A stretch of DNA of 59,641 nucleotides, from positions 1-59,641 of the forward strand of contig CAZYIM010000014.1 of the NCBI GenBank assembly GCA_964647565.1, given 5' to 3'. Within the stretch, counting starts at the first letter, position 1. Each line of letters starts with the position of its first letter. The notes beneath the pieces were generated by a model. That model did no database searches, was not told the origin of the DNA, and worked only from the letters and a program-made list of their open reading frames with translations. The stretch comes from an uncultured Methanosarcinales archaeon. GTDB taxonomy: Archaea > Nanobdellota > Nanobdellia > Woesearchaeales > CAZYIM01. Below, piece by piece: positions 5,818 through 49,831 of the stretch. Made by a program: the position numbers and the translations under genes.

Positions 5818-6656
5818 TATCAAGACCAGATCCAGATACGCTGCCTCCGATATCAAGAGAACAAACAATAATCGAGAATGATGAATCTGGCAAGAAGCCG
5901 AGAAGGATAAGGAAATCCAAGAAGAAGTACGCTAAAGTCTTCTGGAACTATCTCGACCTGGTTCATTTTCCTGGCGCTACCCACATCAATCCTTACCAGG
6001 ATGGCGAGAACAAGCTGAAAGATCATATCAAGAAGATTTCAAGGGAAGGTGAGATCATTACACCGTTTTCTATTGATGAAAGCCTGATCCTTAATGGTCT
6101 TGAAGAAGAAGGGAGAGTGGTCAATATTGCTGGATTAGCAAAGGAACTGTTCAAAGACGCTAGATTTCTACTGGATTCAGTTGAAATAGACGTTGGTTAT
6201 GGCAAGAAAGCAAAAGAAGTCCGGTATGACATCACTGATATCAAAGGATTTGATAATAAAATATTGATGGCCAGATTGTCTTTGCCTGTCATGTCAAAAT
6301 ACTGGATAGAAAACACTCCTGACCATGTAAAAGAGATCATAAGAAAAGAGCTTAAAAAACAACATGTAGAAAGACTTTACACGCTTACCATCCTTTTTCC
6401 CAAGTCTGAGGACCATGACTATAGGGGACTTGTAATACCCCTTAGCAGAAAAAACCATCTGATCCCTAAGAAAATCAGGAAGGAGTTCGGCCATATATTC
6501 TACTATGTAGCCAATGATATAGTCAAGCCATTCTACGGAGCACCACATACAGATTTCAGGTATTATGATGTCTATTTCAACAAGCCATCTTTTGAAAGGG
6601 GAGTAAGGGATGCTATCAACGATCTGGGCAGCTGGGGGAGCAAGAAGAATGATTGA
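5814..6656 (+). CDS. Array paralog 9 (280 aa)
   Basis: Short Pro-rich extension then ESGKKPRR; core GLVIPL..GHIF; close to 10. Confidence 0.9.
   Translation: MISRPDPDTLPPISREQTIIENDESGKKPRRIRKSKKKYAKVFWNYLDLVHFPGATHINPYQDGENKLKDHIKKISREGEIITPFSIDESLILNGLEEEGRVVNIAGLAKELFKDARFLLDSVEIDVGYGKKAKEVRYDITDIKGFDNKILMARLSLPVMSKYWIENTPDHVKEIIRKELKKQHVERLYTLTILFPKSEDHDYRGLVIPLSRKNHLIPKKIRKEFGHIFYYVANDIVKPFYGAPHTDFRYYDVYFNKPSFERGVRDAINDLGSWGSKKND
5863..5909 (+). repeat. 47-bp leader repeat matching 4329-4375 (1 mismatch)
   Basis: aaacaataatcgagaatgatgaatc[c/t]ggcaagaagccgagaaggata. Confidence 0.9.
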
Positions 6657-7445
6657 AGCGGGAACAGGCAGAAAGCCAAGAAGGACAAGAAAGTCCCAAA
6701 TCAAATACGGAAATCTATTTTCACACTATTGGGATAAAGTCATGTATCCCTGGGCCGGCCATATCAACCCGTTTGAGGAATATAAATTTCAGAAACATTT
6801 TCAGAGGGTCCAAAAAAGAGGAGAATCGCTTGTTGAGGGATCGATAGAGGAATGCCATCTATTTGAAGAGCTTGAAGATGAGGGACATGTGATTAACATC
6901 GCCCAATTGGCGCAGGATCTTTTCAAAGGAGCCAAATTCACGCGCGCTAATGATCACTATCTCATGAATATTGCAACAACACTCGATGATTTGAGATATG
7001 AAATTACTAACATAAAGGGATTTGATTATCCAATAAAGATGGCCAGACTTTCCTTGCCAAGAGTCTCAGATGCCAGGAAAAATATATCTTTTGATGAAAG
7101 GTATGGCCTGATCAAGAAATCTCTCAAGAAAAGGGATTACGCCATCCATTACACCCTTTCTATAGTGTTTCCGATTAGAAAAAGTAGCTGGCCTTCCTAT
7201 CACGGCCTTATTATTCCGCTGAAAAGGAAACACTTCATGATACCCAGGAAAACAAGAAAAGAGTTCGGCCATATTTTCCGATATGTGGCTAATGAGCGAA
7301 GTATACAAGATGGAAGACCAAAAACAGATTTCCATTACTATGATGTCTATTTCAACAAGCCATCTTTTGAGAGAGGAATAAGAGATGCTATCAATGACCT
7401 GGGCAGCTGGGGGTGCAAGAAGAATGATTGAAGCAGGAACAGGCA
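6564..7445 (+). repeat. 107-bp junction-spanning direct repeat pair (6564-6670 and 7339-7445)
   Basis: 99/107 identical by manual comparison; covers the gene tail, stop, next ATG and leader. Confidence 0.9.
6649..7431 (+). CDS. Array paralog 10 (260 aa)
   Basis: Start moved to MIEAGTGRKPRR at 6649; C-terminus nearly identical to 9. Confidence 0.9.
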   Translation: MIEAGTGRKPRRTRKSQIKYGNLFSHYWDKVMYPWAGHINPFEEYKFQKHFQRVQKRGESLVEGSIEECHLFEELEDEGHVINIAQLAQDLFKGAKFTRANDHYLMNIATTLDDLRYEITNIKGFDYPIKMARLSLPRVSDARKNISFDERYGLIKKSLKKRDYAIHYTLSIVFPIRKSSWPSYHGLIIPLKRKHFMIPRKTRKEFGHIFRYVANERSIQDGRPKTDFHYYDVYFNKPSFERGIRDAINDLGSWGCKKND

Positions 7446-8263
7446 AGATAAAGAAGAAAAAGAAAGTGAAAGGCATTAATCTAGATGGGAGATACGTATC
7501 ACTTGAGACCTATAGAAAAGTACACTCCTGGAAGGGTGGAACTCCGCGCAAATTAAGAAAGGATATGGAAAAAGATATTAAATCCTGGAAAGAATACTTT
7601 TCAAGAGCTGCAAGGATGTTTTCTGATAATACACCAATCGATCTAGAAGAGGGCTCATTTACTGAAAAAGAGTTTGCACAAAATCTCAGAACAGCACTTA
7701 GAAATGAATATGTAGATTTGCCTGCTGTCGTTGAGAACATATTCATAGACAAGCAATATTTGAACAAAGAACACAGTAGGAACGACCAGGTTTTTTACAT
7801 TCATAAAAAACTATCTGCACTTATTGTTGAACCTAGTATTGATTTTATTGACATTGCAGTAATGGTTATGCCAAAAGATTCTGTTGAAACACATATTCTT
7901 CAGAACACTCTCATCGATAAGAAGATGGACTGGATGGCTGGAATAGGCATTTCAGGCAGTAATTACTTTCTTGAGATCTACCTGAGAAAGGGCGCAATTC
8001 AGCATCCAAAACACATCAAGGCAAGGGATGTTATATTGGTGCCTATGATGGGCAATCATAAGCATGTGCCCGAACCGCTCTACCAATACCCGGGCCACAT
8101 AATTCACCTTAGCTACCAAGTTTGGAATGAACAATTTTCAGACGGTGGCGAAGTCGTTCCGCGAGCAGAGATCAAAAAGAAATACATCGGAGTCTATCAT
8201 TCTACGAAATCGCTTGAATCTGGCTTGAGACAAACCCTTGAAAGGTTGGGAGGTGGCAAATGA
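7424..8263 (+). CDS. Array paralog 11 (279 aa)
   Basis: Start moved to MIEAGTGKIKKK at 7424; core LEIYL..VPM..HKHVP..GHI; related to 12 and 13. Confidence 0.9.
   Translation: MIEAGTGKIKKKKKVKGINLDGRYVSLETYRKVHSWKGGTPRKLRKDMEKDIKSWKEYFSRAARMFSDNTPIDLEEGSFTEKEFAQNLRTALRNEYVDLPAVVENIFIDKQYLNKEHSRNDQVFYIHKKLSALIVEPSIDFIDIAVMVMPKDSVETHILQNTLIDKKMDWMAGIGISGSNYFLEIYLRKGAIQHPKHIKARDVILVPMMGNHKHVPEPLYQYPGHIIHLSYQVWNEQFSDGGEVVPRAEIKKKYIGVYHSTKSLESGLRQTLERLGGGK
8249..8255 (+). promoter_or_regulatory. Shine-Dalgarno GGAGGTG inside the 3' end of the upstream gene (example; also 9151, 17100, 17891)
   Basis: Complementary to the 16S rRNA 3' end and 4 nt upstream of the next ATG at all four sites. Confidence 0.8.
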
Positions 8264-9165
8264 GCGGAGGAGGTGTTGCTGGAATTCCTGAGCACTTGAA
8301 AAAAATGAATGTGCCTATCGAACTTGAGGCAGAGGTGGCAGCAGTGTTCAATGATCCGCGAGACAGGGTTATTGAGGCAGGCAGCGGTAAAATAAAGAAA
8401 AGAAAGAAAGTGATGACTTTATTCGGGATTCCTTTAAAAGAAGCTTATTGGGTTGAAAATTTTGGATCAACTGGAAAAGCTAAGTGGGAGGAACAAGAAA
8501 AACTGATCAATAACATTTCTAGGGGCATGATGGGTTTAAGAAGTTATTGGAACTTTATTTATTCTTTTAATATCCAGAAAGAATCATTTGCAAATAAATT
8601 TTATTTTGAACTTGAAAAGATTTTAGGAGATAGACATATCCCGCTGCCAAGAATAGCAGATGAAATTTTTTCAGGAGGAAAATATCATTTTAAAATTGAT
8701 GATCTTCATGGAACAGGGATTCAAAGATATTATATAACTCATAGGGATTTTGATAATATTCAGCTTGCAATTCTACAGCTTCCTAAAAGAGTAGTCAAGG
8801 CTTCAACTCTTAAGAAGACATTGATAAACAATAATAAAAAATTAATCGAGGATTCAGGTCTTTCACATGACAATCTTTACCTGGAGATTTTTTTCAAGAT
8901 AAAACCTTCAACTGGAAAATCCGTACAAAAAAGAGAGAGTATATTTGTTCCATTAACACCTAAACACAAATATGTACCCAATCATATGAAAAGATACTTT
9001 GGACACATATTTCATCTTACTTATGTGATAGAGAAAGGACAGAAATTCTCAAGCAAAGCTATCAACTCATCAGTTAAGTTAAGATACATCGGTGTCTATC
9101 ATTCTACGAAGGCTTTAGAAAGCGGCCTCGGAAAATACCTATCTAATCTTGGAGGTGGCAAATGA
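8260..9165 (+). CDS. Array paralog 12 (301 aa)
   Basis: GGAGGTG RBS plus ATGA overlap; extension of about 37 aa then EAGSGKIKKRKKV. Confidence 0.9.
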   Translation: MSGGGVAGIPEHLKKMNVPIELEAEVAAVFNDPRDRVIEAGSGKIKKRKKVMTLFGIPLKEAYWVENFGSTGKAKWEEQEKLINNISRGMMGLRSYWNFIYSFNIQKESFANKFYFELEKILGDRHIPLPRIADEIFSGGKYHFKIDDLHGTGIQRYYITHRDFDNIQLAILQLPKRVVKASTLKKTLINNNKKLIEDSGLSHDNLYLEIFFKIKPSTGKSVQKRESIFVPLTPKHKYVPNHMKRYFGHIFHLTYVIEKGQKFSSKAINSSVKLRYIGVYHSTKALESGLGKYLSNLGGGK

Positions 9166-10088
9166 GCGGATCAGGTGTTGGAGGGGATGGATCGAATAAA
9201 GATAGAATATCATCAGAGATGAGGACTATGATGCATTTCATGATGGAAGAGAGATTAAGAAATAAGCCAATCGAGGCTGGCAGCGGCAAGATCAAGAAGA
9301 AAAGAAAACTGAAGAAACTATATGGCAAGTCCATAAGAAGTATCAATAGAACGCTAATCTGGAAAGGCAATCCTAAGAAGAACTGGAAAAACCAAGAGAG
9401 ATGGATAAAAAACACAACAAGAAAATTTTCTGGTTTTTACAATTCAAGTATAGTCTATAAAAAGAGTTTTACTAGAAACAGGAGCCTGGAATACCTAGAA
9501 GGGATGATGAAGAGACAGTTCATCTCCCTGCCTGAGATTGCAGAGACTGTTTTCTATGGCTATTATTATCGTCGGACCTATGAACATCCGATAAATAATA
9601 TGAAAATCCAAAGACATTTTCTTAAGCCTACAACTAATAATTCCAACATTGAACTGATAGTGATGCAGACCATCAGGACCGAAACCAAAGAATCCATTAT
9701 CAAGGAGACTTTGATGGAAGACTCAAGTTATCTTCAAAACAAAACAGGGATATCGCATGATAACTTGTACATGGAAATATTTCTGAAGAATAATGTGAAA
9801 AGAAAGGATAAACTGAAGATCAGAAAAAGCATCCTTATACCTATGACCTGCCAGCATAAGTATTTGCTGCAGCAGTTGAAACAATATCCAGGTCATATTC
9901 TCAAGCTGGAGTATTCATTGGCAGAGTGGAATGTCGAAACTCCATTAAAATATACAGGAAAATTCACTTATGATAAAACTGGAAAGTATGTCTCAAAAAT
10001 CAACATTAAACATTTCGGAGTGTACAGAACAACAGGGGCGCTTATAGACGGCCTAACTGATGTTCTACAATCGGGAGGTAAGAGATGA
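9162..10088 (+). CDS. Array paralog 13 (308 aa)
   Basis: GGAGGTG RBS plus ATGA overlap; extension then EAGSGKIKKKRK; shares SHDNLY with 12. Confidence 0.9.
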   Translation: MSGSGVGGDGSNKDRISSEMRTMMHFMMEERLRNKPIEAGSGKIKKKRKLKKLYGKSIRSINRTLIWKGNPKKNWKNQERWIKNTTRKFSGFYNSSIVYKKSFTRNRSLEYLEGMMKRQFISLPEIAETVFYGYYYRRTYEHPINNMKIQRHFLKPTTNNSNIELIVMQTIRTETKESIIKETLMEDSSYLQNKTGISHDNLYMEIFLKNNVKRKDKLKIRKSILIPMTCQHKYLLQQLKQYPGHILKLEYSLAEWNVETPLKYTGKFTYDKTGKYVSKINIKHFGVYRTTGALIDGLTDVLQSGGKR

Positions 10089-10777
10089 CTGAAATCATAG
10101 AGAATCGTGAAAGTGGGAAAATTAAGAAGAGAGCCAAACCAGTCATAGTTGATCCTCTCGATGGTTATGGACATAAAATATTAGACTTTGGACGGAATGC
10201 AGATATAATTGGAGCCAGAGTCATAAGAAGGGGATCTGCACTGGGCGTTGATTCCATCATTGAAAATCCCTTTATTAGGGAGCTGGTAAAAAATGACACA
10301 AGCACTGTTTCAATAGGCGATCTTACAACAGCTCTTTTCTATGGAAGCCAGTACGTACGGGAGACTCACAGGGATAAGGAAGTAGTCACATACACCATTG
10401 CTTCTGCAACAAATCTCCCTAATGTTAAGATAGCCGTCTTGACAGTTCCATCCCTGCAACGCATGGAAATAAGGATGCCTGGAGACAAGCAAGATTCAGT
10501 TGTTTATCTCTGCAATACCCTGAAATTAAATGAAGAAGATTTCAACCTCGGAATTGTTATCAAGGACAAGCCAACAGAAGGAAAAAAGAAGAAATACTAT
10601 TCAGAAGGCCTGATCATCCCGATGGTCCATAATCAGAGAAGAAACAATTACAAATTCATCAACTATGAGACTAAAAATAATACTACACACTTTAAACACA
10701 ATGACGGATTTACAAGTTTTATTGAATTGAGAGATGGAGTTGTCAAGTTCTTGAATAACTACGGGGGCAGGTCATGA
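10085..10777 (+). CDS. Array paralog 14 (230 aa)
   Basis: Leader ESGKIKKR; core FNLGIVIKDK..GLIIPM. Confidence 0.88.
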   Translation: MTEIIENRESGKIKKRAKPVIVDPLDGYGHKILDFGRNADIIGARVIRRGSALGVDSIIENPFIRELVKNDTSTVSIGDLTTALFYGSQYVRETHRDKEVVTYTIASATNLPNVKIAVLTVPSLQRMEIRMPGDKQDSVVYLCNTLKLNEEDFNLGIVIKDKPTEGKKKKYYSEGLIIPMVHNQRRNNYKFINYETKNNTTHFKHNDGFTSFIELRDGVVKFLNNYGGRS

Positions 10778-11580
10778 CAAAACTAATCAAAGCAGGAAAA
10801 GGCAGAAAGCCTCGAAGGATATCTAAATGGAGTTGTTTTGATCCGAAAGATAAAATAGCTCAAATAATGGACAACCTGACTGCTGAAGAAAAACAGATCA
10901 GTGGTGATGGCGGATTCTTAAAGCCTATTGCTGAAAATGATCTTTTGACCACTATTGTCAAGAAAATCCAGACGGAGGGGGATACTTATGAATCTGAAGG
11001 ACAGCAGTTCAAGCACTTGGAAATGTGGTCTCCAAGCAAAAGGGAAGATTCTGGGAAAATCTATCATCTCTGGAAAACTGCGCTTAGTTTATTCAAGAAT
11101 GCGAAACATTACTGCTATGGATATGATAAGATGGATAACTATTGCATGATCGAGGTTCCTGGAAAGAGTTATGTTGAGTTTGCAAAACTTTCTGTCCCCC
11201 ATGACCCTGTAGAGGGAAAAAAACTACCTAAGAATCACCCTGCAATCAATATGATGAGTAGTTGGCTTGCCCTTACAGCGCCTAGATACTTTGGCCTGAG
11301 TATACTGATGAAAGATAAAACTCCTGCAGGTCAGACTTCAGAATACAGGGAAGGTTTTTTCCTTCCACTTTTTCAAAATGATCCGAGAATTCCCGAGCGA
11401 TATCGCAATTCTGAAATTCCAGAGAAATACAGGAATGAATTTGGCCATATTTACCTGGTCAGGAGCACGCCCAAGAAGAACATGTTCAAGTATTATACTC
11501 ATGCAGATTCAAAACAAGGTTTAGAGGCACAACTAGACGCTGCAATCAATCTATATTCAATGGGGAAGAGGGTTACATGA
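10774..11580 (+). CDS. Array paralog 15 (268 aa)
   Basis: Leader AGKGRKPRR; core GFFLPLFQNDPRIP..GHIY. Confidence 0.9.
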   Translation: MTKLIKAGKGRKPRRISKWSCFDPKDKIAQIMDNLTAEEKQISGDGGFLKPIAENDLLTTIVKKIQTEGDTYESEGQQFKHLEMWSPSKREDSGKIYHLWKTALSLFKNAKHYCYGYDKMDNYCMIEVPGKSYVEFAKLSVPHDPVEGKKLPKNHPAINMMSSWLALTAPRYFGLSILMKDKTPAGQTSEYREGFFLPLFQNDPRIPERYRNSEIPEKYRNEFGHIYLVRSTPKKNMFKYYTHADSKQGLEAQLDAAINLYSMGKRVT

Positions 11581-12284
11581 AAACTAAAATAATAGATAAG
11601 CCGGAGAGCGGCAAGAAGCCGCGAAGGAAAAAGAAGTTCAAGTTTCCTTTAGATGATAGAATACTTTCAGGTTATCCGGATGGTATCATCAATCCATTCA
11701 CACAGGCAGAGCTATATGACAATATCAGGAAGGCGATTGAAAAACAGGGCGAAAAGTTCCAAAAGAATTCTATCATGGAGATAAAACATCTCAAAGGACT
11801 GGCTAAAGGATACTTTTCTGTATTTGAACTCTGGCATACAGTAAACAACTATTTTCTAGGTGCAAAATACATAAGAGTGATAGGTGCAGAGACAGTAAAC
11901 TATTACCTGACTTCTCCAAGATATACCGATATGGGATTGGCAAAACTCACAGTGCCTAAACCCAAAACTCCCAAGGTTACAAAATACTATGGTTCTAAGA
12001 TTGTTATGGATATTGATTCTTATCCTGAGTGTTTCAATCTCAGCATCCTGATAGACAAGATGTATAAGCGTGGAAGAGAGAAGAAAACCCAGGGATTCAT
12101 CCTTCCATTATCAATAAATGACAAGCGGATTCCTTCAGAAAATAATCTTTGCTTCGGACATATATTCCGGGCCGAGCTAAAACCCGCAACTAGAGTCTTG
12201 TACAGTTCAGGTTCAAAATCAAAGAAAAAATACTTTTCGAAGATAGATCGTGATGTCTTTGGAAAGGTGATTGTTTATATGTAA
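11577..12284 (+). CDS. Array paralog 16 (235 aa)
   Basis: Leader PESGKKPRR; core GFILPLSINDKRIP..GHIF; close to 17. Confidence 0.9.
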   Translation: MKTKIIDKPESGKKPRRKKKFKFPLDDRILSGYPDGIINPFTQAELYDNIRKAIEKQGEKFQKNSIMEIKHLKGLAKGYFSVFELWHTVNNYFLGAKYIRVIGAETVNYYLTSPRYTDMGLAKLTVPKPKTPKVTKYYGSKIVMDIDSYPECFNLSILIDKMYKRGREKKTQGFILPLSINDKRIPSENNLCFGHIFRAELKPATRVLYSSGSKSKKKYFSKIDRDVFGKVIVYM

Positions 12285-12285
12285 A

Positions 12286-13014
12286 ATGAAAACTGAAATA
12301 ATACATGCAGGAAAAGGCAAAAAGCCGCGAAGAAAGCAGAAATTCAAGTTTCCTTTAGATGACAGATTGTTATCAGGTTATCCAGATGGTATCATCAATC
12401 CATTTACACAAAAAGAACTCTTTGAAAATATTTGTAAGAAGATAGATCAAGAAGGTAAAGAGTTTAGCAAGGACACAATAGAGGAGATAAAATATCTCAA
12501 AGAATTCGATAAAAATATTCATGCCCTGTTTGGGGTCTGGAAGGTGGCTAATAATTATTTCAAAGGTGCCAAATGTTTGCGCGTCAAAGGTGCAGAGACA
12601 ATCAACTATTACATAAATGCTCATCCGAGATTTAGCACTTTAAAGCTTGCTAAACTTACAGTGCCTAAACCTGAACATCCCAATGTTCGACGAATTTATG
12701 ATCATAATACTTATTTTAAAATTATGGACACTCCTGACTGCTTTAATCTCAGCATCCTGATTGATAAGATGCAAACCCTGCCGAATGATATGTATTCTTA
12801 CAGGACCCATGGATATATCCTTCCCTTGTCAATTTATGATTCAAGAATTCCTAAAGACGATCCAGACAAAACAAAAAATTACTTTGGACATCTGTTCAAA
12901 GTCGAACTCGGTCCTAAACCCTATGTAGGATACCATTCAGGATATGAATCTAAGAAAGAATACCTGGAAAAGATAGACTATGAAGTCTTTGGATTAGTAA
13001 AAATTTATATGTAA
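12286..13014 (+). CDS. Array paralog 17 (242 aa)
   Basis: Start moved to MKTEIIHAGKGKKPRR at 12286; shares KFKFPLDDRxLSGYPDGIINPFTQ with 16. Confidence 0.9.
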   Translation: MKTEIIHAGKGKKPRRKQKFKFPLDDRLLSGYPDGIINPFTQKELFENICKKIDQEGKEFSKDTIEEIKYLKEFDKNIHALFGVWKVANNYFKGAKCLRVKGAETINYYINAHPRFSTLKLAKLTVPKPEHPNVRRIYDHNTYFKIMDTPDCFNLSILIDKMQTLPNDMYSYRTHGYILPLSIYDSRIPKDDPDKTKNYFGHLFKVELGPKPYVGYHSGYESKKEYLEKIDYEVFGLVKIYM

Positions 13015-13015
13015 C

Positions 13016-13750
13016 ATGAAAGACGTAATTTACGAACCGGAAAGTGGAAAGAAGCCTCGAAGGCGTAAGAAGTGGAGTTTGAGTGATAAAGATAAAGAGA
13101 ATTCTGGCCATCCTGGAGGCATCTTAGATCCAAATAATCAAAAGGAACTTATAGACGACTTCTATGAGGTTGCAGATACTAGTGGTAAAACCTTCGACCA
13201 GAATTCATTAAAGGAGAAGAAATTCCTTAACAAGCTTCTCAAAGAGAATGACTTCCTGGTAGATTTGGGTCGAATCACAGAGAAGTTATTCACTAATTCT
13301 AAGTTCGGTCGAATTCAAGGAGAACAGGTCACTAATTATTATTTTATCTATGTGAAAAACATTTCAAGTGTTGAACTTGCCAAACTGACAGTGCCAAAAC
13401 CCTTATCTGAAGATAAAGGCAGGAACAGTTATAAAAAAGATGCCCAAAGAGCAATCCAGGTCATAAAGCTCAATCCTGAATATTTCAATCTTTTCATACT
13501 GACAGGTGCGGAATATTACCCTTCTGAGAATACCGACAAGTATGAATTCGGATATATGGTTCCACTGTTTGTTCCTGAACCAAATTCTCGCTATCTGGCA
13601 CCTCAAAGAATGAATGCAAAAAAGAAGATCCATCTTGTTAGTGTTAACTACCAGAATAACAATGAACTTAGTTGTTCGAAAGTTGTATCCACTGAAAAAG
13701 AACTGATACCTAGAATAATAGAAAAAGTGACGGGATTGGAGAGTTATTAA
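13016..13750 (+). CDS. Array paralog 18 (244 aa)
   Basis: Leader PESGKKPRR; shares LAKLTVPKP with 16 and 17. Confidence 0.9.
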   Translation: MKDVIYEPESGKKPRRRKKWSLSDKDKENSGHPGGILDPNNQKELIDDFYEVADTSGKTFDQNSLKEKKFLNKLLKENDFLVDLGRITEKLFTNSKFGRIQGEQVTNYYFIYVKNISSVELAKLTVPKPLSEDKGRNSYKKDAQRAIQVIKLNPEYFNLFILTGAEYYPSENTDKYEFGYMVPLFVPEPNSRYLAPQRMNAKKKIHLVSVNYQNNNELSCSKVVSTEKELIPRIIEKVTGLESY

Positions 13751-13758
13751 CATACAAA

Positions 13759-15461: not shown

Positions 15462-15463
15462 AA

Positions 15464-35611: not shown

Positions 35612-35612
35612 A

Positions 35613-41906: not shown

Positions 41907-42754
41907 TGGTCATTTCAATCGGAGATGGTCCTGCGATGATAAAGGCAGGATCCGGTAAGAAGAAGAAAAAGCCGAAGAGTATCATGACCTTGATGAGGGA
42001 GATGGAGAAGATTCCTAATTCCAAGCTTAATAATCTTGAAATCAAATATCTGGAATTATATAGTTGGCTGTCTGATGAGAATATCAAGGAGGAGAGCCAG
42101 ATGGAAGGGATTATGGGTAGGAGTGGGGATGAAGGGCGAAGACGCGCGCTAGTTGACAATTTCCTTGCTATAGACCCAAGCCTAAAGAAGAAAATGGAAA
42201 AGGATCCTAAGATTGTTAGAGTTGATCTGTTAGCAAATAAACTGTTTCGGTCCAGCCAGCTTGACCATGTCTACTATACTTCGTGGGTAGACAATAAACC
42301 TTTCCATTACAAAGGATTTGAAATCAAACAGATACCCGAATATAGGTATAAGAATATAGAACTGGTAACTGCTGATCTCCCATCCATAACAAACGTCTAT
42401 AGAGGTAATATGAGGCTTTCTACCCTGATGGCTAAATCTGAATTTTCTGAGATGTTTAGGATGACAATAATCTTCAAGGAGAATTGGAAGAAGAGAAAAG
42501 CCTTGATAATACCTATATATCTGCCTGACTTACTCCTTCCCAATGTTGCGTGGTTTACTGTTCCTGGATCTGATCCCAAGAGCAAACGTACAGTCCAGCA
42601 TAAGATGTACAAGGCCTATGCACATCTCTTCTATACACCTGACTTCTTGAAAAGAGACGAGAAGCAGTTCTACTATGTAGATAGTTTCTTTTCTCAAGAG
42701 TCCTTGGAAAGAGGCGTTGATCAAGCCATTAAGAAGTACGGGGGTGGTCAGTAG
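41906..42754 (+). CDS. Array paralog 54 (282 aa)
   Basis: GGAGGTG RBS and TAATG overlap; leader KAGSGKKKK; close to 55. Confidence 0.9.
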   Translation: MVISIGDGPAMIKAGSGKKKKKPKSIMTLMREMEKIPNSKLNNLEIKYLELYSWLSDENIKEESQMEGIMGRSGDEGRRRALVDNFLAIDPSLKKKMEKDPKIVRVDLLANKLFRSSQLDHVYYTSWVDNKPFHYKGFEIKQIPEYRYKNIELVTADLPSITNVYRGNMRLSTLMAKSEFSEMFRMTIIFKENWKKRKALIIPIYLPDLLLPNVAWFTVPGSDPKSKRTVQHKMYKAYAHLFYTPDFLKRDEKQFYYVDSFFSQESLERGVDQAIKKYGGGQ

Positions 42755-43680
42755 TGATGGAGATTGAGCTTCGCAAGGCATATTCCCAAAGTGTTGACAT
42801 GTATGGCAGGACTATCTATTATGATGTAGATGGTAAATCATACACTGAAGAAGGTCCTGGCAAGAAGAAGAAAAGAAGGAAGAGCATCATGACGCAGCTG
42901 AGGACAGCCCGAATAGTACCTAAAAACAATACCAATCCTGAGCCAATCCGATATGAGGGCGTACTTGAATGGCTGCGAGAATATGATTATAACACAGAAC
43001 AGAAACTGCAGAATATGATCAAAAGGGATTTGCGCGAAGGCAAGAGACAGTATTTTACAGGATATAACTTTTTCCATATGGATACTCTTTTACAGAAAAA
43101 GGCAGAACAAGATCTAAAAATAGTAAGAGTTGACTTGTTAGCGAACAGGCTTTTCAAGCACTGCCAGATGGATTATATTCCGAGCAAGGAGTATCTTAGG
43201 ACTGCAGATGGCACTATTGACAAAACAAAAACGCTTGACTGTTACACAATTGAGCTTAAAAACCTCCACAAGGTTCCGAGTGTGGAACTTGTAGTTGCAC
43301 AATTTCCTGCTATTAAAGACAGTAAAGTCGATAACAATATCCCACTCTCAGAATATATGCTGGATTTTGAGCATTTTAGGATGTTTCGGATGAGCATCAT
43401 ATTCAAGAAGAAACAAGGCAAGAGACAGGCTTTGGTAATACCCCTATATATGGGTGGCTGGGATAAAAACTCCATTTCAATATACATAACTAAAGAGCAG
43501 TTTGAAAATTGTCCTGAACAATTGAGAAAAACTTCTGCAAACGTCTATGCAAAACTACACTACACACCCAACATCCTGTCAAATAATCCAGAATTCTGTT
43601 TTGTGGACGGTTACTACAACCAGGATTCTTTAGAACGCGGAGTAGAAGACGCCATTAAGAAGTACGGGGGTGGTTCTTGA
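42754..43680 (+). CDS. Array paralog 55 (~308 aa)
   Basis: GTG 42754 or ATG 42757; leader EGPGKKKK; KIVRVDLLAN and MFRMxIIFK shared with 54. Confidence 0.9.
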   Translation: MMEIELRKAYSQSVDMYGRTIYYDVDGKSYTEEGPGKKKKRRKSIMTQLRTARIVPKNNTNPEPIRYEGVLEWLREYDYNTEQKLQNMIKRDLREGKRQYFTGYNFFHMDTLLQKKAEQDLKIVRVDLLANRLFKHCQMDYIPSKEYLRTADGTIDKTKTLDCYTIELKNLHKVPSVELVVAQFPAIKDSKVDNNIPLSEYMLDFEHFRMFRMSIIFKKKQGKRQALVIPLYMGGWDKNSISIYITKEQFENCPEQLRKTSANVYAKLHYTPNILSNNPEFCFVDGYYNQDSLERGVEDAIKKYGGGS

Positions 43681-44504
43681 TGGGAGTGGTACCACCAACT
43701 ATGCCAATCAAACCTAAAGCTCTGCTTCCTGAAGACTTCTTCCTTGAGCTTGGCTACACAGGCCGGCGCAAAATAGCAGAAGGTATCAAGCATCAGCCTT
43801 CCAGCGGCAAGAAAAAGAAGATGACCAAACTGGATGCGAAATATTACCGGATTATGAGAGAATATAATAAGCAATTAACAGGTCATTGGATATCTGCAGG
43901 TATTATCAATCCTATACTTCAACTTGTTCTAGGTTGGAATTTAGATGATATAAGGCAAAAAGGAGAGATCTATAGTCATCTTAACAGAGTCAAATATGCT
44001 CCGCAACCGTTAGGTGAACTTTCACTAGATCCGGACATTTTTGATTTAATATTGACTGGCTCAAAATTCGAAGTAAAGAATGAAAAAATATACATGGCGC
44101 TCTATTGTGTCGACATACCAGATTACCCAGGCATCTCATTGGCAAAGTTGGGCATACCCAAACTGTTAGAGATTGGAATGCCAAATGAGTACGCACAGGA
44201 AATTAAGCAAGATGTCCTAAACCTAAATCTTGTTTTTAAGTACGGAACCAATCATTTCAACAAACATTATGAAGGCCTGATCATCCCAATGACACGGGAA
44301 GACAACAGGATACCTGAGCAAACCAAGCACATCTACGGACATATATTCTCTTATGTTGTAAAGCCAGAGACAATAAGTTCTATATCTTATTGCGACATCA
44401 AATACTACGGTCTCTACAACTCATACAAACTGCTAAAAGAAGGCCTAGAACGAGCCATAACAGACCACGGAGGAAAAACCAATAATGAAAAAGATTATTA
44501 TTGA
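43680..44504 (+). CDS. Array paralog 56 (274 aa)
   Basis: TGATG overlap; extension then HQPSSGKKKK; core GLIIPMTREDNRIP..GHIF; close to 58. Confidence 0.9.
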   Translation: MGVVPPTMPIKPKALLPEDFFLELGYTGRRKIAEGIKHQPSSGKKKKMTKLDAKYYRIMREYNKQLTGHWISAGIINPILQLVLGWNLDDIRQKGEIYSHLNRVKYAPQPLGELSLDPDIFDLILTGSKFEVKNEKIYMALYCVDIPDYPGISLAKLGIPKLLEIGMPNEYAQEIKQDVLNLNLVFKYGTNHFNKHYEGLIIPMTREDNRIPEQTKHIYGHIFSYVVKPETISSISYCDIKYYGLYNSYKLLKEGLERAITDHGGKTNNEKDYY

Positions 44505-45237
44505 AGCAGGACCTGGTAAAAGAAAGAAGCATCCTAAATCATTGAGAAAGTTGTATCCAGATAGTCCGATCGCTAATGATAGCGATTATATCAGGAGGAT
44601 CCAAAACTATAAACTTGGTATATTGACTGATCCGACTTTCTTTAAAAACATAAAATCAAAAAAAAGTGATGTTAAGAAAAATGGTAAAATCTTAACCACT
44701 CATGTAATCTCTCATCTTGACAGTTTTCTCGAGCCAGAGATATATCATAGATATAATTTTGCGCGGGTTGATCTGTTGCTGGAACAGTTGTTTGATGGGT
44801 CTAAAGTAATAAGCAAAAAAGACAACTCTATGATTAATTTCACTATTCTCCCTCCCAAGAAATTAGAAAATGTCGATTTGATTTATTTGGATGTTCCTCT
44901 TGTCGGATATAGACATGATTTAGACAGATGGGACATTCTGGCAGACACCAACAGGAGTGTGCTTAATGTCTGCCTGAACCAAAACGTGTTTTCTAAATCC
45001 GTAATAAGATACAGCTTAGTGATTCCAATAGATCCTAAGGATGCAAGAAATCCACAGAAGACAGATTTTATCAGAGATATACAATTTTCAGGCATATATG
45101 ATAACTTCTATGCGCACATATTGAAAGCACAGATCAACATCGAGACTGGAGATATCAAATACAGTTATCTTGACAGCTATTTCACCCATAAAGGGCTTGA
45201 AGCTGGATTCAAGAAATACATGAGGGATACTAAATGA
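44485..45237 (+). CDS. Array paralog 57 (250 aa)
   Basis: GGAGG RBS; leader EAGPGKRKK; close to 59. Confidence 0.9.
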   Translation: MKKIIIEAGPGKRKKHPKSLRKLYPDSPIANDSDYIRRIQNYKLGILTDPTFFKNIKSKKSDVKKNGKILTTHVISHLDSFLEPEIYHRYNFARVDLLLEQLFDGSKVISKKDNSMINFTILPPKKLENVDLIYLDVPLVGYRHDLDRWDILADTNRSVLNVCLNQNVFSKSVIRYSLVIPIDPKDARNPQKTDFIRDIQFSGIYDNFYAHILKAQINIETGDIKYSYLDSYFTHKGLEAGFKKYMRDTK

Positions 45238-45275
45238 TAGGAGTATTAGATGAATATTTGGAATGATATAATAAA

Positions 45276-46082
45276 ATGGATGCAGAAGAGTTAAAACGTC
45301 TTTATCCCCCAGGTCCTAATATTGAAATTTTACCTAAGGATTTCTTTGTTGAACTTGGCTATAGTGGAAGGCGCAAAGACCCTGATAATCTTGTCCACCA
45401 GCCAAGCAGTGGAAAGAAAAAGAAGATGACCCGGCTTGTAGCTAAATATTACAAAATAATGAAGGAATATAAGGGCGGATCGCTTGGCACGTTTAATGAT
45501 GAAGGTATTATAAACCCGATATCACATAAGTCATGGGGATGGGTATTTGACGAGATCAAAGAGAACGGACAGGTTTTTAACCCATATAAATATGCAGATA
45601 AACTTATTGGTATGAATGATGTTATATTTGAAGTGCTGGGAAAAGCGACGTTTATCTCCAAAATCGAGAATCTTTGCCTTGGACTTTATATGAAGGACAT
45701 ATTGGGATTCCCTGGCATCACATTAGCAAAACTAGGTCTTCCAAAATTTAAGGAAGATCTTACGTTTAATGAGAACAGATTAAAAGAAAGATACGATGAT
45801 ATTAGCCTTAACTTTGTATTCAAATACAATAATAAAACTAACAAGGAGCACTATGAAGGCATTGTGGTGCCTTTATTAACTAATAAAGACAGAAGAATAC
45901 CTGATGAAACAAGATATATATTCGGCCATATATTTTCTTATGTTGTCAAAGATGATGAAAATACGTCTTTATCATTTTGTGATATCAAATACTATGGACT
46001 CTACAGCACACAGGGATTGTTGATACAAGGCCTGAAGAGAGCCATAATGGATCATGGAGGAAAATCCTATAATGAAGAATAA
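45276..46082 (+). CDS. Array paralog 58 (268 aa)
   Basis: DFFVELGYSGRRK and HQPSSGKKKK as in 56; preceded by an in-frame mini-ORF at 45234-45266. Confidence 0.88.
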   Translation: MDAEELKRLYPPGPNIEILPKDFFVELGYSGRRKDPDNLVHQPSSGKKKKMTRLVAKYYKIMKEYKGGSLGTFNDEGIINPISHKSWGWVFDEIKENGQVFNPYKYADKLIGMNDVIFEVLGKATFISKIENLCLGLYMKDILGFPGITLAKLGLPKFKEDLTFNENRLKERYDDISLNFVFKYNNKTNKEHYEGIVVPLLTNKDRRIPDETRYIFGHIFSYVVKDDENTSLSFCDIKYYGLYSTQGLLIQGLKRAIMDHGGKSYNEE

Positions 46083-46851
46083 TATTATTGAGGCTGGAAG
46101 CGGGAAAAGGAAGAAGCATCCAAAATCTATTAGAGCTTTGTATCCTATGCTTCAATCAGTTTTTAAAAACCAGCATGCCTATCAAAAGAGGATCGAGAAC
46201 TATAATTCTGATATTATTAATAATTTAGATATCTATAAAAATCTTGAATCACATATAGGAGAGATCAATGAAACCGGGACTACTTTAAATAAGTCAAAAA
46301 TTTCTTTACATAGCTGCTTCATAATACAGCCCATTCTTGAAAAATATAATTTTGTCAGGCTTGATCGACTTGTTGAAAAATTCTTCAAGGGAGCAAAGTT
46401 CATAGTTAATAGAAAATTCAACTCAGACCAATACCTGATTGTACCGCCCGAATCATACCGCGACATAGAGATGCTGATATTAGAATTGCCAAATGTAGGC
46501 AATAGGATTGTTGATAATCAATGGGTTCTTTTTGATGATAAAACTAAACATGTGCTGAGTATTATCAAGAAACAAAAAAAATATGAAAAAGGCAAACCAA
46601 GAAATGTTGTTGTTATACCTTTGGATCCTAAAGATCCCAGGAATCCTCAAAAGGCAGATTTCCAAAGAGCTTTCCAGAAAAAAGGCTTTTGTGACGGTTT
46701 TTATGCACATATACTGCTAGCACAGGTTGAACCTGATAAAAATCAGGTCAATTACATCTATCTGGACAGTTGCTTCAGCCATAGAGGATTTGAAAAAAGG
46801 TTCAATATCTATATGAAAAACTACGGAGGTCTGCTTCATGATGTATTTTGA
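46072..46851 (+). CDS. Array paralog 59 (259 aa)
   Basis: Start moved to MKNNIIEAGSGKRKK after GGAGG; DPKDxRNPQKxDF shared with 57. Confidence 0.9.
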   Translation: MKNNIIEAGSGKRKKHPKSIRALYPMLQSVFKNQHAYQKRIENYNSDIINNLDIYKNLESHIGEINETGTTLNKSKISLHSCFIIQPILEKYNFVRLDRLVEKFFKGAKFIVNRKFNSDQYLIVPPESYRDIEMLILELPNVGNRIVDNQWVLFDDKTKHVLSIIKKQKKYEKGKPRNVVVIPLDPKDPRNPQKADFQRAFQKKGFCDGFYAHILLAQVEPDKNQVNYIYLDSCFSHRGFEKRFNIYMKNYGGLLHDVF

Positions 46852-47629
46852 AAAACCAATCAGAGCAGGAAGCGGGAAGATAAAAAAAAGAAAAAAGACC
46901 AAGATCAGACTTAGTGATGGAAATGTAAAATATCTTGAGGAATATAAGAATAAAAGAAAGTTTTTTTGGTCTACCATTGTAAATCCGTATACAGACGGAT
47001 ATGAAATTAATGGAATTAAAGACAGGTTAAAAAACGTAAAAATGGATGTACAGCCTTTTGTCAAAGAGACAGCAACATTGGATTATGAGACTCTTCAATA
47101 CCTGAATTATACCAACCTCGGGAAGATAGTTGATAACCTTTTTACACCTTCAAAATATCGATATATTACTGACATGGATGATTCCAATGTTTATGATATC
47201 CTCCCTTCAAGACTCTATCATATTGAATTTGTCAGATTAAAATTACCTCACATTCTAAGCCATTGGAAAAGTTTAGCATCAACAATGGACGACCTAGATT
47301 TCTGGACAAAAAGAACTAGAGACGTGCTGAAATTCTATTTCGGCGCTAACTCAGTTAAACCTTGGTCATTACAGATCTTATTCAAGCAGACAGCTGAGCA
47401 AAAAAAATCCGAACCTGAATATCGCGAGAGTATGTTAGTGCCTATGTTCCAAAAAGACGGACGAGTCGCCAGAAAATTGAGAAATGTACCTGATGCCCAT
47501 TCACATATCCTAAGATTGAAACACACTCGAAAACGTACCAGGATTGAATACTACAAGATTTGCTACTCGATGGAGCAACTAGAAAACCAACTCCATGACA
47601 TAATCCATCACTATGGGAGGAATAGATGA
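46838..47629 (+). CDS. Array paralog 60 (263 aa)
   Basis: GGAGGT RBS; leader RAGSGKIKKRKK; core LQILFK..VPMFQKDGRV..HIL. Confidence 0.9.
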   Translation: MMYFEKPIRAGSGKIKKRKKTKIRLSDGNVKYLEEYKNKRKFFWSTIVNPYTDGYEINGIKDRLKNVKMDVQPFVKETATLDYETLQYLNYTNLGKIVDNLFTPSKYRYITDMDDSNVYDILPSRLYHIEFVRLKLPHILSHWKSLASTMDDLDFWTKRTRDVLKFYFGANSVKPWSLQILFKQTAEQKKSEPEYRESMLVPMFQKDGRVARKLRNVPDAHSHILRLKHTRKRTRIEYYKICYSMEQLENQLHDIIHHYGRNR

Positions 47630-48339
47630 AAGAGCTAATCAAAGCAGGATCCGGGAAAAAGAAGAAGCAGATGAAAGTTCAGATTAAATATAAGAAGCTT
47701 CTTTCAAGCTATTCTCTTTCTTTTGAAAAACCTCCAAATGGAATATGGCCTGTTGACTTATGGATGGCTATGGCACCTGCCAAGCTAGAGACTGCAAAAA
47801 TAGATGCTTTGCAGATTAAAGATGGTTGGCTGACCAAAGACAAGTATTATAGAAATTTACTAGGTGCTGCAGAAATCCCTGATATAGGATTAGTCATTGA
47901 TAATATTTTTAAAGACTCTTACTATCTACAATATTACCATAAATTCTTATGCCATTATTATTTTTTCGGTACTGACAAAGTGCCTGGAGTTGCTATAGGT
48001 CAACTTACGATTCCGAAACTTGAAGATTATAAAAATAAATGGCCTGTTGAAGGAACAGATGACTACAAACAGAATCCTGACAATTTTGGACTAAATCTTA
48101 TCATAAAGAAAAATAAGAAGTCAAAGTATGTTACAGCAGTTCTTTTCATCCCTCTGTCACGCCATGACAGCAGGATCCCTGATGAAACCAAAGAAGAATA
48201 CTGTCATATCTTCAACCTTGATTATCTGACAAAAGGTGATGTTATTTTCAAATACTGGGATATATGCAGGACAGAAACCAATATTGAGAAAAGCATTCGA
48301 AATGCGATAAAAGTATATGGAGATAATAGGATAAAATGA
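47626..48339 (+). CDS. Array paralog 61 (237 aa)
   Basis: GGAGG RBS; leader KAGSGKKKK; core FIPLSRHDSRIP..HIF; close to 62. Confidence 0.9.
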   Translation: MKELIKAGSGKKKKQMKVQIKYKKLLSSYSLSFEKPPNGIWPVDLWMAMAPAKLETAKIDALQIKDGWLTKDKYYRNLLGAAEIPDIGLVIDNIFKDSYYLQYYHKFLCHYYFFGTDKVPGVAIGQLTIPKLEDYKNKWPVEGTDDYKQNPDNFGLNLIIKKNKKSKYVTAVLFIPLSRHDSRIPDETKEEYCHIFNLDYLTKGDVIFKYWDICRTETNIEKSIRNAIKVYGDNRIK

Positions 48340-49037
48340 TAGAAGCAGGAAGTGGGAAAAAGAAGAAGAAACTGAAAGTCAATCTGAAATATAAAGATCT
48401 TCTGAATAGCTATTCACGTTCATATGAAACAAGGCCTTATGGTGCCTGGTCGATAGAAGAATGGCAACGTGAGTTTAATTTTAAGATCTCAAATGTTGAG
48501 AACTATTATAAAACTTATCTTGAAAAAGGGTTGATAACAAAAAAAGATTACTATCAACACCTGATGCAAGTCTCGGGTGTTCCTGATCTTGGAAAAGTCA
48601 TAGAGGATATGTTCGAGGGCTATTATTGCACGCCATATGAGCATGGTGACTTTAGCAATTTCTATTTCTTTCAAAACAAGGGTGCTGTGGCAATAGGCAG
48701 GTTAGCTGTTCCCCGGGTTGAAAAAGATGTGGCTCATTGGCCAGATCCTGATTCAGAGGAATCTTATGATAGGAAAGACTTTTACGGATTGAGCCTCGTA
48801 CTTAGGCGTGATGGCAGGATGAGCTCGATGAATGGTATATTAAATATTCCTCTGTCCAGCCATAACCAAAACATCCCTCTTGAAGCAAAAGATGAGTTTG
48901 GACATGTTTTCATAATACAATATCCTCCTGGCGGAAACACAGTCTTCACATACTGGGATATCTGCAGGACGCAGGAAAAGCTTGAGAAGAGCATCCAAAA
49001 CGCGATCAAAACCTATGGAGATGATACAATAAGATGA
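48336..49037 (+). CDS. Array paralog 62 (233 aa)
   Basis: Leader EAGSGKKKK; YWDICRT..EKSIxNAIKxYGD shared with 61. Confidence 0.9.
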   Translation: MIEAGSGKKKKKLKVNLKYKDLLNSYSRSYETRPYGAWSIEEWQREFNFKISNVENYYKTYLEKGLITKKDYYQHLMQVSGVPDLGKVIEDMFEGYYCTPYEHGDFSNFYFFQNKGAVAIGRLAVPRVEKDVAHWPDPDSEESYDRKDFYGLSLVLRRDGRMSSMNGILNIPLSSHNQNIPLEAKDEFGHVFIIQYPPGGNTVFTYWDICRTQEKLEKSIQNAIKTYGDDTIR

Positions 49038-49831
49038 TCGAAGCAGGAAGTGGAAAGATAAAGAAATTCAGGAAGACGCTTGAAAAAAGCGGAATTGTTG
49101 GTTTCAATAAATTAAGAGATATCAATATGGCAATGTTGGGCGGTACCCTTGGTACTATGGAACCAAAAGGTGATGATTATTTCCAGCGAATTTTAGCATC
49201 AAAAAATTGTAGATATAAAACAGTAGGTAAAGATGTTATCTTCAGCGAAGAATCTTTTTTCAATCATATAGATAGGCAGGAGATATTTCCCGTGGATCTT
49301 ATTGCTGGTAAACTTCTTAAAGGTGCCAGATGCAAGAACACCTCGGAATATAACGGCAAGGAGGATACTTGGCCAAGAAGATATTTCTTTGAAAATGTGC
49401 CAGAACTGCCTGGAATTGCATATGGAACTTTTCATTACTATAATTTTACTGCTAAGGAAATAGAGAGATATGGTTCAAGGATCTCTTTTAATCAATTTTA
49501 CCAATATCGTGATAGCAACGATATGACCCTTCATCTTGTATTCAAGGAAGGGGAAGCTGATGATTTTAGGGAAAGGCTGAATGTAATCCGAAAAGGGATA
49601 ATTATTCCAATAACCCAACGAGACCATAGAGTTAGCTATCTGAAAGAAAACGCTCAAGGCAAGTTCAAAAAGAAATTGGATCAAGCTGTAGCTCATATCT
49701 ACAAGGTTGAATTTGATCCAAACCCAGGCAAATATAAGATTGGCGCCATAAAGATCAAGTATTTCGACTCATATTTCACAGTCGATTCAGTAATATCAGA
49801 ATTCAAGGAGAGGATTGAAAGACTAAGATGA
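49034..49831 (+). CDS. Array paralog 63 (265 aa)
   Basis: Leader EAGSGKIKK; core GIIIPITQRDHRV..AHIY. Confidence 0.9.
   Translation: MIEAGSGKIKKFRKTLEKSGIVGFNKLRDINMAMLGGTLGTMEPKGDDYFQRILASKNCRYKTVGKDVIFSEESFFNHIDRQEIFPVDLIAGKLLKGARCKNTSEYNGKEDTWPRRYFFENVPELPGIAYGTFHYYNFTAKEIERYGSRISFNQFYQYRDSNDMTLHLVFKEGEADDFRERLNVIRKGIIIPITQRDHRVSYLKENAQGKFKKKLDQAVAHIYKVEFDPNPGKYKIGAIKIKYFDSYFTVDSVISEFKERIERLR

Follow-up and report, generated by a model that had tools for sequence, protein, structure and literature searches.

Homology-block edges concentrate in a short junction module of a very large archaeal array of translationally coupled paralogs

The window analysed here, i.e., the whole 59,641-nt stretch of DNA, is a single contig that holds 75 same-strand ORFs, two of them open-ended (Table 1). 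The corresponding family HMM matches 117 ORFs in the genome, which are distributed over six contigs (C14, C56, C68, C69, C1, and C36), with one further weak match on C7; the assembly is 87% complete and comprises 86 contigs. The array thus delimited extends over ~91 kb and ~117 genes (~3.4% of the genome), with its first genes on C1 and its last on C36, and is chromosomal, in an uncultured marine archaeon. Its flanks (~8 kb on each side) encode a HAD hydrolase, a phosphoesterase, an AIR-synthase-like protein, an acetyl-CoA hydrolase, and AbrB-type regulators. An array of ~117 translationally coupled paralogs is very unusual. Genes are numbered below as in the first-pass annotation, and a g prefix marks the numbering of the re-analysis, in which gene n is g(n-1).

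The encoded protein is ~260 aa long and looks cytoplasmic (the repeat unit was taken as 267 residues), and 75/75 window genes carry the N-terminal motif h-I-x-x-G-S-G-[KR]-[KRI]-[KP]-[KR]. The copies are old, strongly diverged paralogs (~20% identity). The family is an orphan without annotated relatives, and its predicted fold is confident but matches no solved fold; residues 1-19 of the structure model are without regular secondary structure, and the domain comes after them. No toxin, secretion or defence signal was found for the array family.

Table 1. Features of the array within the window (positions are those of the whole window).
Feature	Position	Strand	Remarks
Array piece, 75 paralogs head-to-tail	1..59641	+	contig-long, both ends open; from ORFs and motif
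55-nt exact copy of 2916-2970 (leader and basic-tract start, -41..+14 from Gly codon)	1..55	+	contig end sits on repeat
Junction 9/10: last ~90 nt of gene 9, 8-nt start/stop overlap, gene 10 leader	6564..6670	+	
Junction 10/11, copy of junction 9/10	7339..7445	+	body 11 unrelated to body 10
Permuted unit: basic tract, body and tail of gene 29 plus gene 30 leader	22418..23228	+	copy 23996-24805
Gene 45 N-terminus, two leader/basic motifs in tandem (G-K-R-K-K, then G-R-K-P-R-R)	34883..35000	+	
Genes 46-48 with common own leader, basic tract and body	35627..37385	+	counter-example
Permuted unit: gene 49 plus gene 50 leader	38039..38830	+	copy 38797-39564; two HSPs
Permuted unit: gene 61 plus gene 62 leader	47642..48371	+	copy 48343-49066; two HSPs
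Truncated gene 66 (193 aa), then 161 nt	51490..52232	+	
Conventional unit of gene 67 (own start codon, leader, body, tail)	52317..53221	+	counter-example; copy 53204-54084
End of gene 74 tail and gene 75 leader, 55 nt identical to C68 contig end	58870..58924	+	

Every gene boundary carries the same compact module: the upstream gene ends in a G-rich, Shine-Dalgarno-like sequence, its stop overlaps the next start in an ATGA-type arrangement, and ~9 leader codons and a Gly-Lys/Arg (basic) tract follow. This junction block of ~45-80 nt is almost the sole DNA still similar among the copies. Genes overlap by 4 nt at 65/110 junctions, an SD-like 5-mer accompanies 61/110 starts vs. 37/545 control positions, and the 16S 3' end has CCTCC. 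Several distinct leader types and basic-tract types occur side by side in the array, and the genome holds no module copy outside it. Conservation of the module is probably maintained by translation together with the protein's N-terminal motif.

The exact repeats are concentrated in the same place: 277 of the 332 maximal exact repeats of at least 16 nt (83%) are entirely contained in the interval -45..+35 nt around the Gly codon, and another 15 overlap that block. Many of these repeats connect genes in which both the bodies and the upstream tails are unrelated, such as the 41-nt repeat of g35/g36 and the 55-nt repeat of g0/g4, and exact module matches of 31-55 nt join genes with body similarity of at most 0.16 and upstream-tail similarity of at most 0.15. 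The bodies of the genes hosting the 55-nt copy at the window's first position and its counterpart are only weakly alike, and the identity between the gene 74/75 junction and the C68 end breaks exactly at the Gly/Ser codon, the downstream bodies being unrelated. The double motif of gene 45 is likely the scar of an offset recombination. Just 5' of the next start after gene 66 (~52297-52320), a family-type tail remnant lies in another frame, based on HSPs of 28650-28725 and 30954-31020 vs. 52297-52366.

To locate breakpoints, we used 34 unique homology segments (LLR >= 20), not all of them independent since several share a gene, with boundary zones that were drawn after inspecting the data; the Gly-Lys zone spans 14 residues, or 5% of the unit. 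Of the right edges (n=34), the Gly-Lys zone contained 12, the stop/start 9, leader extensions 3, the last 40 residues 5, mid-body positions 2, and contig ends 3; the corresponding numbers for the left edges (n=34) were 8, 2, 7, 7, 10, and 0. Breakpoints are therefore far from uniform, and the Gly-Lys codons are a strongly preferred edge, as had been proposed in the first-pass annotation (12/31 evaluable right and 8/34 left edges, when a uniform spread would give ~1.6/31 right edges by arithmetic), and 24/31 of the evaluable right boundaries fall in the stretch that reaches from the stop codon to 10 residues beyond the Gly codon; most pairs are saturated and, hence, the exchange points are located only to within a few codons. 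The sole structural variant seen, protein P0054, corresponds to contig C69 read with a 62-nt deletion that starts at a look-alike purine tract and has its other end exactly at the Ser codon that precedes the Gly-Lys tract.

It had also been proposed that the duplicated unit is permuted relative to the gene, i.e., consists of body, tail, RBS and next leader. At least four units do run from Gly-Lys tract to Gly-Lys tract, and such duplication events do leave genes intact and coupled; however, a second boundary, at the stop/start, is about as frequent, and there are mid-body chimeras as well. One such case is junction 9/10 vs. 10/11 (HSP 6460-6694 vs. 7238-7467), where the 99/107 identical positions originally reported were recovered. 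Here, 107/120 nt before the Gly codon are identical vs. 6/15 of the next 15 nt, and the following bodies are unrelated (similarity 0.01); in junction 9/10 the ATG is at 6649, the stop at 6654-6656, and the Gly codon at 6667. For 29/30 vs. 31/32, the leaders that follow have an identity of 0.88 and the bodies that follow score 0.04, and the gene 29 unit is covered by a single blastn HSP (822 columns, 68%) that begins 8 nt ahead of one Gly codon and reaches 15 nt beyond the following one, with ML boundaries, in residues from the Gly codons, of +8 [-2..10] (left) and +6 [0..25] (right). Junctions 49/50 vs. 50/51 (tail 0.70; next leaders 0.75 at the nucleotide and 0.88 at the amino acid level; next bodies 0.02; boundaries at -1 [-2..2] and +7 [0..16]) and 61/62 vs. 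62/63 (tail 0.61; next leaders 0.88; next bodies 0.04; HSPs that begin at -11 relative to one Gly codon and extend to +17 relative to the following one; right boundary +2 [-1..6]) complete the four clean cases among the seven originally listed. In 40/41 vs. 42/43, the match covers the spacer and the first codons but stops before the Gly codon, with a leader identity of only 0.58. The comparison of 2/3 with 3/4 does not discriminate, the upstream genes' own leaders being more alike (0.79) than the following ones (0.62), and the one of 22/23 with 23/24 failed, with a tail similarity of 0.17 and a common stretch of only ~20 nt at the stop/start.

As a general rule, the idea that leaders travel with the upstream tail did not survive, since three global tests all tie and the leader tracks its own body as well as it tracks the upstream tail. 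Specifically, mean leader identity in a conditional test was 0.619 when own bodies were related and 0.565 when upstream tails were (background 0.48; own vs. upstream P = 0.49), leader type changes 77 times on the own-body tree vs. 79 times on the upstream-gene tree (50 vs. 50 in a second count), and the leader correlates at r = 0.138 with own body vs. 0.153 with upstream tail. The basic tract follows its own body (identity 0.79 vs. 0.565 background, P = 2e-9) and not the upstream tail (0.59, P = 0.24). Nonetheless, leader sharing is more than chance would give, with leader identity of at least 0.71 in 6/18 informative pairs vs. 11% of 4904 background pairs. Clean examples picked by eye should be treated with caution, as they are offset by counter-examples just as clean in which leader and own body match together whereas the following leaders differ (g66/g67, g45/46/47, g55-58, g11/12). 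For instance, the gene 67 unit (HSP of 934 columns) has its left ML boundary at -10 [-14..-8], its right one at the gene end, and a next-leader identity of 0.42, while for genes 46-48 the left boundary is at -7 [-8..-1], the gene 45 tail is unrelated to the 46/47 tails, and the gene 49 leader is unrelated.

Related copies are neighbours. Every one of the 25 same-contig pairs with body similarity of at least 0.3 is separated by a distance of 1, 2 or 3 genes (16, 6, and 3 pairs, respectively) vs. 7.9% expected; 5 further pairs of this similarity are on different contigs. In otherwise unrelated pairs, module identity is 0.60 between neighbours and drops to 0.51 at distances of more than 10 genes (P = 1.6e-4), and the decay with distance is also found at synonymous codons (170/286 vs. 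11918/24860).

We favor, as the probable explanation, that unequal homologous recombination duplicated genes locally and in tandem, that short-patch conversion acted in addition, and that exchanges were resolved within the junction module, either before or after the leader. Under this hypothesis, misaligned copies would undergo unequal homologous recombination or replication slippage, the array would grow locally by tandem duplication of 1-3 genes, and short-patch gene conversion would also keep the modules of neighbours alike. An exchange resolved at the Gly-Lys codons would copy body, tail, RBS and next leader, and one resolved at the stop/start overlap would copy an ordinary gene; the two types of resolution are similarly numerous and the leader, therefore, behaves like a small separate module. 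Selection against chimeras within the folded domain probably sharpens the pattern. We infer both the mechanism and the role of selection from the traces that old events appear to have left in the sequences. Points against local duplication include the mid-body position of 10/34 left boundaries, the 29/31 case, which takes either a pair of unequal crossovers or a single templated insertion (but only one step if the insertion is of cassette type), and the fact that boundary enrichment could arise by selection alone.

This last alternative, which we regard as rather unlikely, holds that endpoints arise anywhere, that domain chimeras are lost so that surviving endpoints lie in the unfolded N-terminal leader or the tail, and that junction identity is kept by selection on translational coupling, not by recombination. 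The unstructured residues 1-19 ahead of the domain in the model agree with it, as do the existence of mid-body chimeras and junctions that are unusually unstructured and have SD-like motifs, as selected initiation regions would be. However, exact matches of 32-55 nt, synonymous sites included, link particular pairs, often neighbours, several leader and basic-tract types coexist, and a decay of module and synonymous-codon identity with distance is not expected from array-wide selection. We consider it scarcely credible that the junction likeness instead reflects mis-joins at 55-mers in a repeat-rich, chimeric contig, even if 55-nt exact module repeats do lie at the ends of two array contigs (the 5' end of C14, the window's contig, and one end of C68). 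The similarities that carry information are diverged (68-88%) and, not being identical, cannot be collapsed repeats; further, 85 database proteins are exactly equal to array ORFs, and contigs of four public runs from two studies match 5600-25500 at >=99% with no insertions/deletions listed, although one run may be the source sample and these contigs are short and ~4x deep, leaving little power to show structural variants.

The first-pass annotation had likened the locus to an integron. Integron cassette arrays are long, one-directional runs of promoterless, tightly packed genes with a short repeat at each boundary; they adjoin an IntI tyrosine recombinase, their attC sites are imperfect inverted repeats that fold as single-strand hairpins, and their mostly unrelated, independently captured cassettes are excised as circles and inserted at attI. 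The array studied here is likewise long, one-directional, tightly packed and promoterless with a short repeat per boundary, but it has no integrase and no folded attC, its repeat is coding, its units are paralogous, and relatives are adjacent, so the integron label does not hold. Of the six tyrosine recombinase (PF00589) matches in the 87% complete, 86-contig genome (C48, C54, C2, C22, C67, C32), none is on C1, C14, C56, C68, C69 or C36, and none was found within ~8 kb of either array flank, where the genes are of housekeeping type. Junction DNA folds worse than bodies, hence no attC-like hairpins (mean DNA MFE in 100-nt windows of -5.16 kcal/mol, n=106, vs. -6.63 kcal/mol, n=212; -4.24 vs. 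-6.53 on the bottom strand), and all window genes (75/75; ~117 in the genome) fit one family HMM as opposed to being unrelated captures. Accordingly, it is very unlikely that a site-specific recombinase excises circles of body, tail, RBS and next leader and reinserts them at another gene's Gly-Lys tract. Such a mechanism would suit the four clean Gly-Lys-to-Gly-Lys units, the sharp identity break at the Gly codon (9/10 vs. 10/11 and gene 75 vs. the C68 end), and units 29 and 31, which are separated by an unrelated body and for which one insertion is simpler than two crossovers, but boundaries at the stop/start are as many and some are mid-body, close relatives are adjacent, not dispersed, and the module is absent outside the array. 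The public contigs on 5600-25500 (4 runs) list two joints with a shorter side of only 27-33 letters, one of them read as a paralog cross-match, and show no reliable novel joints.

The recombination process favored here is already known; it is the array itself that is unusual. According to a report on Trypanosoma brucei, tandem arrays are shaped by unequal crossing-over and gene conversion, i.e., concerted evolution (PMC1855330). The features described there, head-to-tail paralogs with polycistronic expression, misaligned recombination that adds or removes whole repeat units, conversion tracts that cross start and stop codons, and parts of the repeat unit with differing histories, have counterparts in the present array (PMC1855330). 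Unlike in T. brucei, the copies here are very old (~20% identity) with only ~45-80 nt still alike, the host is an archaeon, and ~117 copies of an orphan family are translationally coupled; the conserved block also lies partly within coding sequence, and the unit is therefore sometimes out of phase with the gene. Similarly, according to a study of Vibrio cholerae T6SS effector/immunity arrays, these grow by homologous recombination at conserved coding segments wherever homology suffices, with no specific sites, and because such segments are the substrate, breakpoints accumulate there without a dedicated site (PMC5361080). The V. cholerae arrays consist of unrelated, horizontally gained families adjoining a secretion system (PMC5361080), whereas here one family is duplicated in place and shows no toxin, secretion or defence signal.

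A family without annotated relatives or a matching solved fold makes the array worth characterising. It is also conceivable, if quite improbable in our view, that the module is a selected, portable recombination handle with which host homologous recombination adds, drops and reshuffles a 117-protein repertoire while products stay intact and coupled; if so, the array would be the archaeal equivalent of a cassette array, but recombinase-free and with its "site" written in coding sequence, and would serve the diversification of a protein family, possibly in host interaction. Under the favored hypothesis, a very old array can still grow after its copies have diverged past recombination, since the short module at gene starts would be the sole remaining substrate and would channel exchanges to places that leave whole genes. 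The array would represent a useful worked example of breakpoint channelling rather than a new kind of genetic element.

The contig under study (C14), part of a 2.68-Mb genome in 86 contigs, is packed along its whole length with 75 + strand ORFs (193-367 aa), every one of which (75/75) carries the N-terminal motif hydrophobic-Ile-x-x-Gly-Ser-Gly-[Lys/Arg]-[Lys/Arg/Ile]-[Lys/Pro]-[Lys/Arg]; the Gly codon that opens the basic tract of this motif served as the anchor. A family HMM recovered 117 ORFs in the genome (75 on C14, 15 on C56, 9 on C68, 8 on C69, 6 on C1, 3 on C36 and 1 weak match on C7), and the six-contig array totals ~91 kb, i.e., ~3.4% of the genome and ~117 paralogs. Its 5' limit lies on C1, adjoining a divergent HAD-hydrolase gene, and its 3' limit on C36, before an AIR-synthase-like gene, with one database protein bridging the end of C69 and the start of C36. 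The host is archaeal, as judged by a full-length archaeal SSU rRNA and a partial LSU rRNA in the genome. For a 9.9-kb stretch, public metagenome runs labelled marine or seawater contained 63-81% of the words sampled, and no RNA dataset was among the runs listed for it.

Consecutive genes are tightly joined. A 4-nt ATGA-type overlap was found in 65/110 junctions, the start codon is ATG in 105 and the stop codon TGA in 84 of the 110, and the leader, the short segment preceding the anchor, is 9-10 codons long in 54/110 genes. An SD-like 5-mer rich in G precedes 61/110 starts at a distance of 5-16 nt vs. 37/545 control positions and, given also that the genome's 16S 3' end contains CCTCC, the Gly-rich tail end of the upstream gene is predicted to serve as the ribosome-binding site of the next gene as well. 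At a few junctions a short untranslated spacer takes the place of the overlap, and the spacers before genes 41 and 43 are near-identical, with a GGTGG motif (genes are numbered here from 1 along C14; g-numbers start at g0, so that gene n is g(n-1)). Over all junctions the basic tract is either Gly-[Lys/Arg]-Lys-Pro-Arg-Arg or Gly-Lys-[Lys/Ile]-Lys-Lys-Lys, a difference loosely associated with the type of leader (Glu-Ser-Gly vs. Ala-Gly-Ser-Gly). Some genes bear long N-terminal extensions, 40-112 codons ahead of the Gly-Lys motif, that of gene 20 including two additional leader-like motifs; such extensions may be remnants of unit fusions or deletions.

Coordinates of array portions and junction-related features (on C14 unless another contig is named)
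Feature	Contig or gene	Position
Array portion	C1	1-4251
Array portion	C36	1-2166
N-terminal extension	gene 20	14532-14750
N-terminal extension	gene 29	22090-22430
N-terminal extensions	genes 12, 13	8260-8390 and 9162-9290
Untranslated spacers		31754-31772, 33335-33355, 45238-45275
56-nt exact repeat	genes 67 and 68	53031-53086 and 53891-53946
C14 match to a 55-nt contig-end module repeat		58870-58924
62-nt deletion in P0054	C69	4598-4659

The first-pass annotation had proposed that leaders travel with the tail of the upstream gene, citing seven pairs of junctions. Four of these are clean (9/10-10/11, 29/30-31/32, 49/50-50/51 and 61/62-62/63): related tails continue into matching next leaders, identity falls at or just past the Gly codon, and the next bodies are unrelated; the 99/107 bp match reported for the first pair was reproduced exactly. 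The pair 40/41-42/43 matches only in part, 2/3-3/4 cannot discriminate, and 22/23-23/24 share a stretch of only ~20 nt at the stop/start. Self-blastn of C14 returned 73 HSPs, nearly all short and junction-spanning. The association of leader with upstream tail is real for a subset of junctions, well above chance. One reading considered for this joint travel of tail and next leader is that adjacent proteins might dock on one another.

As a general rule, however, the proposal fails, since the leader tracked its own body equally well in all three global tests. Within C14, leader similarity correlated with that of the own body at Pearson r = 0.138 and with that of the upstream gene or tail at 0.153. 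In a conditional test on all 117 genes, mean leader nucleotide identity was 0.619 (n=20; 9 pairs at or above 0.71) in the own-body set, where upstream tails are unrelated, and 0.565 (n=18; 6 pairs at or above 0.71) in the upstream-tail set, where own bodies are unrelated, over a background of 0.476 with 11% of 4904 pairs at or above 0.71; the two sets did not differ (P = 0.49), and therefore leader similarity follows a gene's own body as well as it follows the upstream tail. Leader-type changes were also counted on FastTree trees of 103 genes and compared with shuffled labels. With 52 leader types there were 77 changes on the own-body tree (shuffled mean 85.8) and 79 on the upstream-gene tree (shuffled mean 86.0), and with 35 types, 50 on each (shuffled means 63.5 and 63.6, respectively). 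The basic tract, on the other hand, tracks its own body (identity 0.79, P = 2e-9) and shows no association with the upstream tail (0.59, P = 0.24); that is, it is clearly part of its own body's unit and not of the upstream tail.

Breakpoints were mapped on every related pair, over five-gene spans, with an in-house two-state likelihood segmentation. Of the 52 unique segments obtained, 34 have LLR >= 20.

Edges of homology segments with LLR >= 20, by zone
Zone	Right edges	Left edges
Anchor zone (-3..+10 residues)	12	8
Stop/start overlap	9	2
Within leader or its extension	3	7 (most directly after the start codon)
Last 40 residues (left edges: of upstream gene)	5	7
Mid-body	2	10
Contig end	3	0

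Uniform spread would place ~1.6 of 31 right edges in the anchor zone (14/267 residues), a comparison in which segments share genes and zone limits were set after data inspection; the observed excess therefore indicates that breakpoints are not uniform, as the first-pass annotation had anticipated. Two edges are preferred, flanking the leader, and each of them is in use. Clean conventional units, in which the leader stays with its own body, are seen at g66/67, g45-47 and g55-58, and mid-body chimeras at g10/11, g15-17 and g73/74.

Exact repeats concentrate at the same place: 277/332 maximal repeats of at least 16 nt lie wholly inside -45..+35 nt of an anchor, and exact matches of 31-55 nt join genes that are unrelated in body and in upstream tail alike. 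Similarity is also local. In otherwise unrelated pairs, module identity (i.e., that of the segment from the SD-like gene end to the basic tract) drops from 0.60 between neighbours to 0.51 at distances of more than 10 genes (P = 1.6e-4), synonymous-codon identity declines with distance too (0.594 vs. 0.479), and every same-contig pair whose body similarity is >= 0.3 (25/25) has its members 1-3 positions apart in gene order. Two array contig ends carry 55-nt exact module repeats, and the identity of one of them with C14 ends exactly at the anchor. The sequence of database protein P0054 is that of C69 translated with 62 nt removed. This deletion starts at a look-alike purine tract and stops right at the Ser codon preceding the anchor, and it would imply a strain or assembly in which one array gene has a re-framed N-terminus. 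Genes 67 and 68, elsewhere only ~66% identical, share a 56-nt exact repeat in their C-terminal tails that looks like a recent conversion patch off the junction. No reliable novel joint was seen in public contigs, a comparison of low power; the Logan contigs of 4 runs listed no indels (some bins had no cover, and power was low), the two joints listed had short sides, and loose ends at Gly-Lys tracts were read as paralog cross-matches.

The family had no match in Pfam, PHROGs or PADLOC, only a 12-bit ZorA match in NCBIfam, far under the cut-off, no sequence match in PDB and no usable match in the ESM Atlas. A confident AlphaFold2 model (pLDDT 84, pTM 0.84) was obtained from the alignment of the paralogs, yet the predicted fold is without a match among solved structures (Foldseek against PDB, nothing at E <= 1e-3; VIA-align wide, top Z = 4.7). 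A word-indexed search recovered only the window's own proteins, and a full HMM scan across 1.84 billion representatives yielded 116 matches: 85 exactly identical to ORFs of this genome, 16 variants of its proteins, near-identical or partial, and 15 distant relatives (23-35% identity) without the Gly-Lys leader. The family was not detected in the 40 same-order and 400 same-phylum genomes searched; locus searches with P0054 against metagenome contigs and with P0063 against genome and viral contigs were negative, and a search of the literature on DPANN tandem paralog arrays found no paper on this family. Four of the distant relatives (P0063, P0087, P0094 and P0109) have N-termini with two copies of Gly-Gly-x-x-Pro-Cys in place of the Gly-Lys leader, and because of this replacement the family appears to exchange short N-terminal modules between lineages.

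The suggestion that the locus is an integron-like cassette array is not supported: PF00589 had no match on any array contig, the flanks are housekeeping-type genes, and junction DNA is less structured than the bodies on both strands. All 23 matches to the module core lie in the array and none outside it. The best-supported mechanism is instead unequal homologous recombination together with short-patch conversion, for which PMC1855330 offers precedent in tandem arrays, and PMC5361080 in arrays that arise by recombination at 'any sufficiently homologous site'. Under this mechanism, misaligned array copies would undergo unequal homologous recombination channelled into the conserved junction module, and short-patch conversion, likewise channelled there, would act alongside it.
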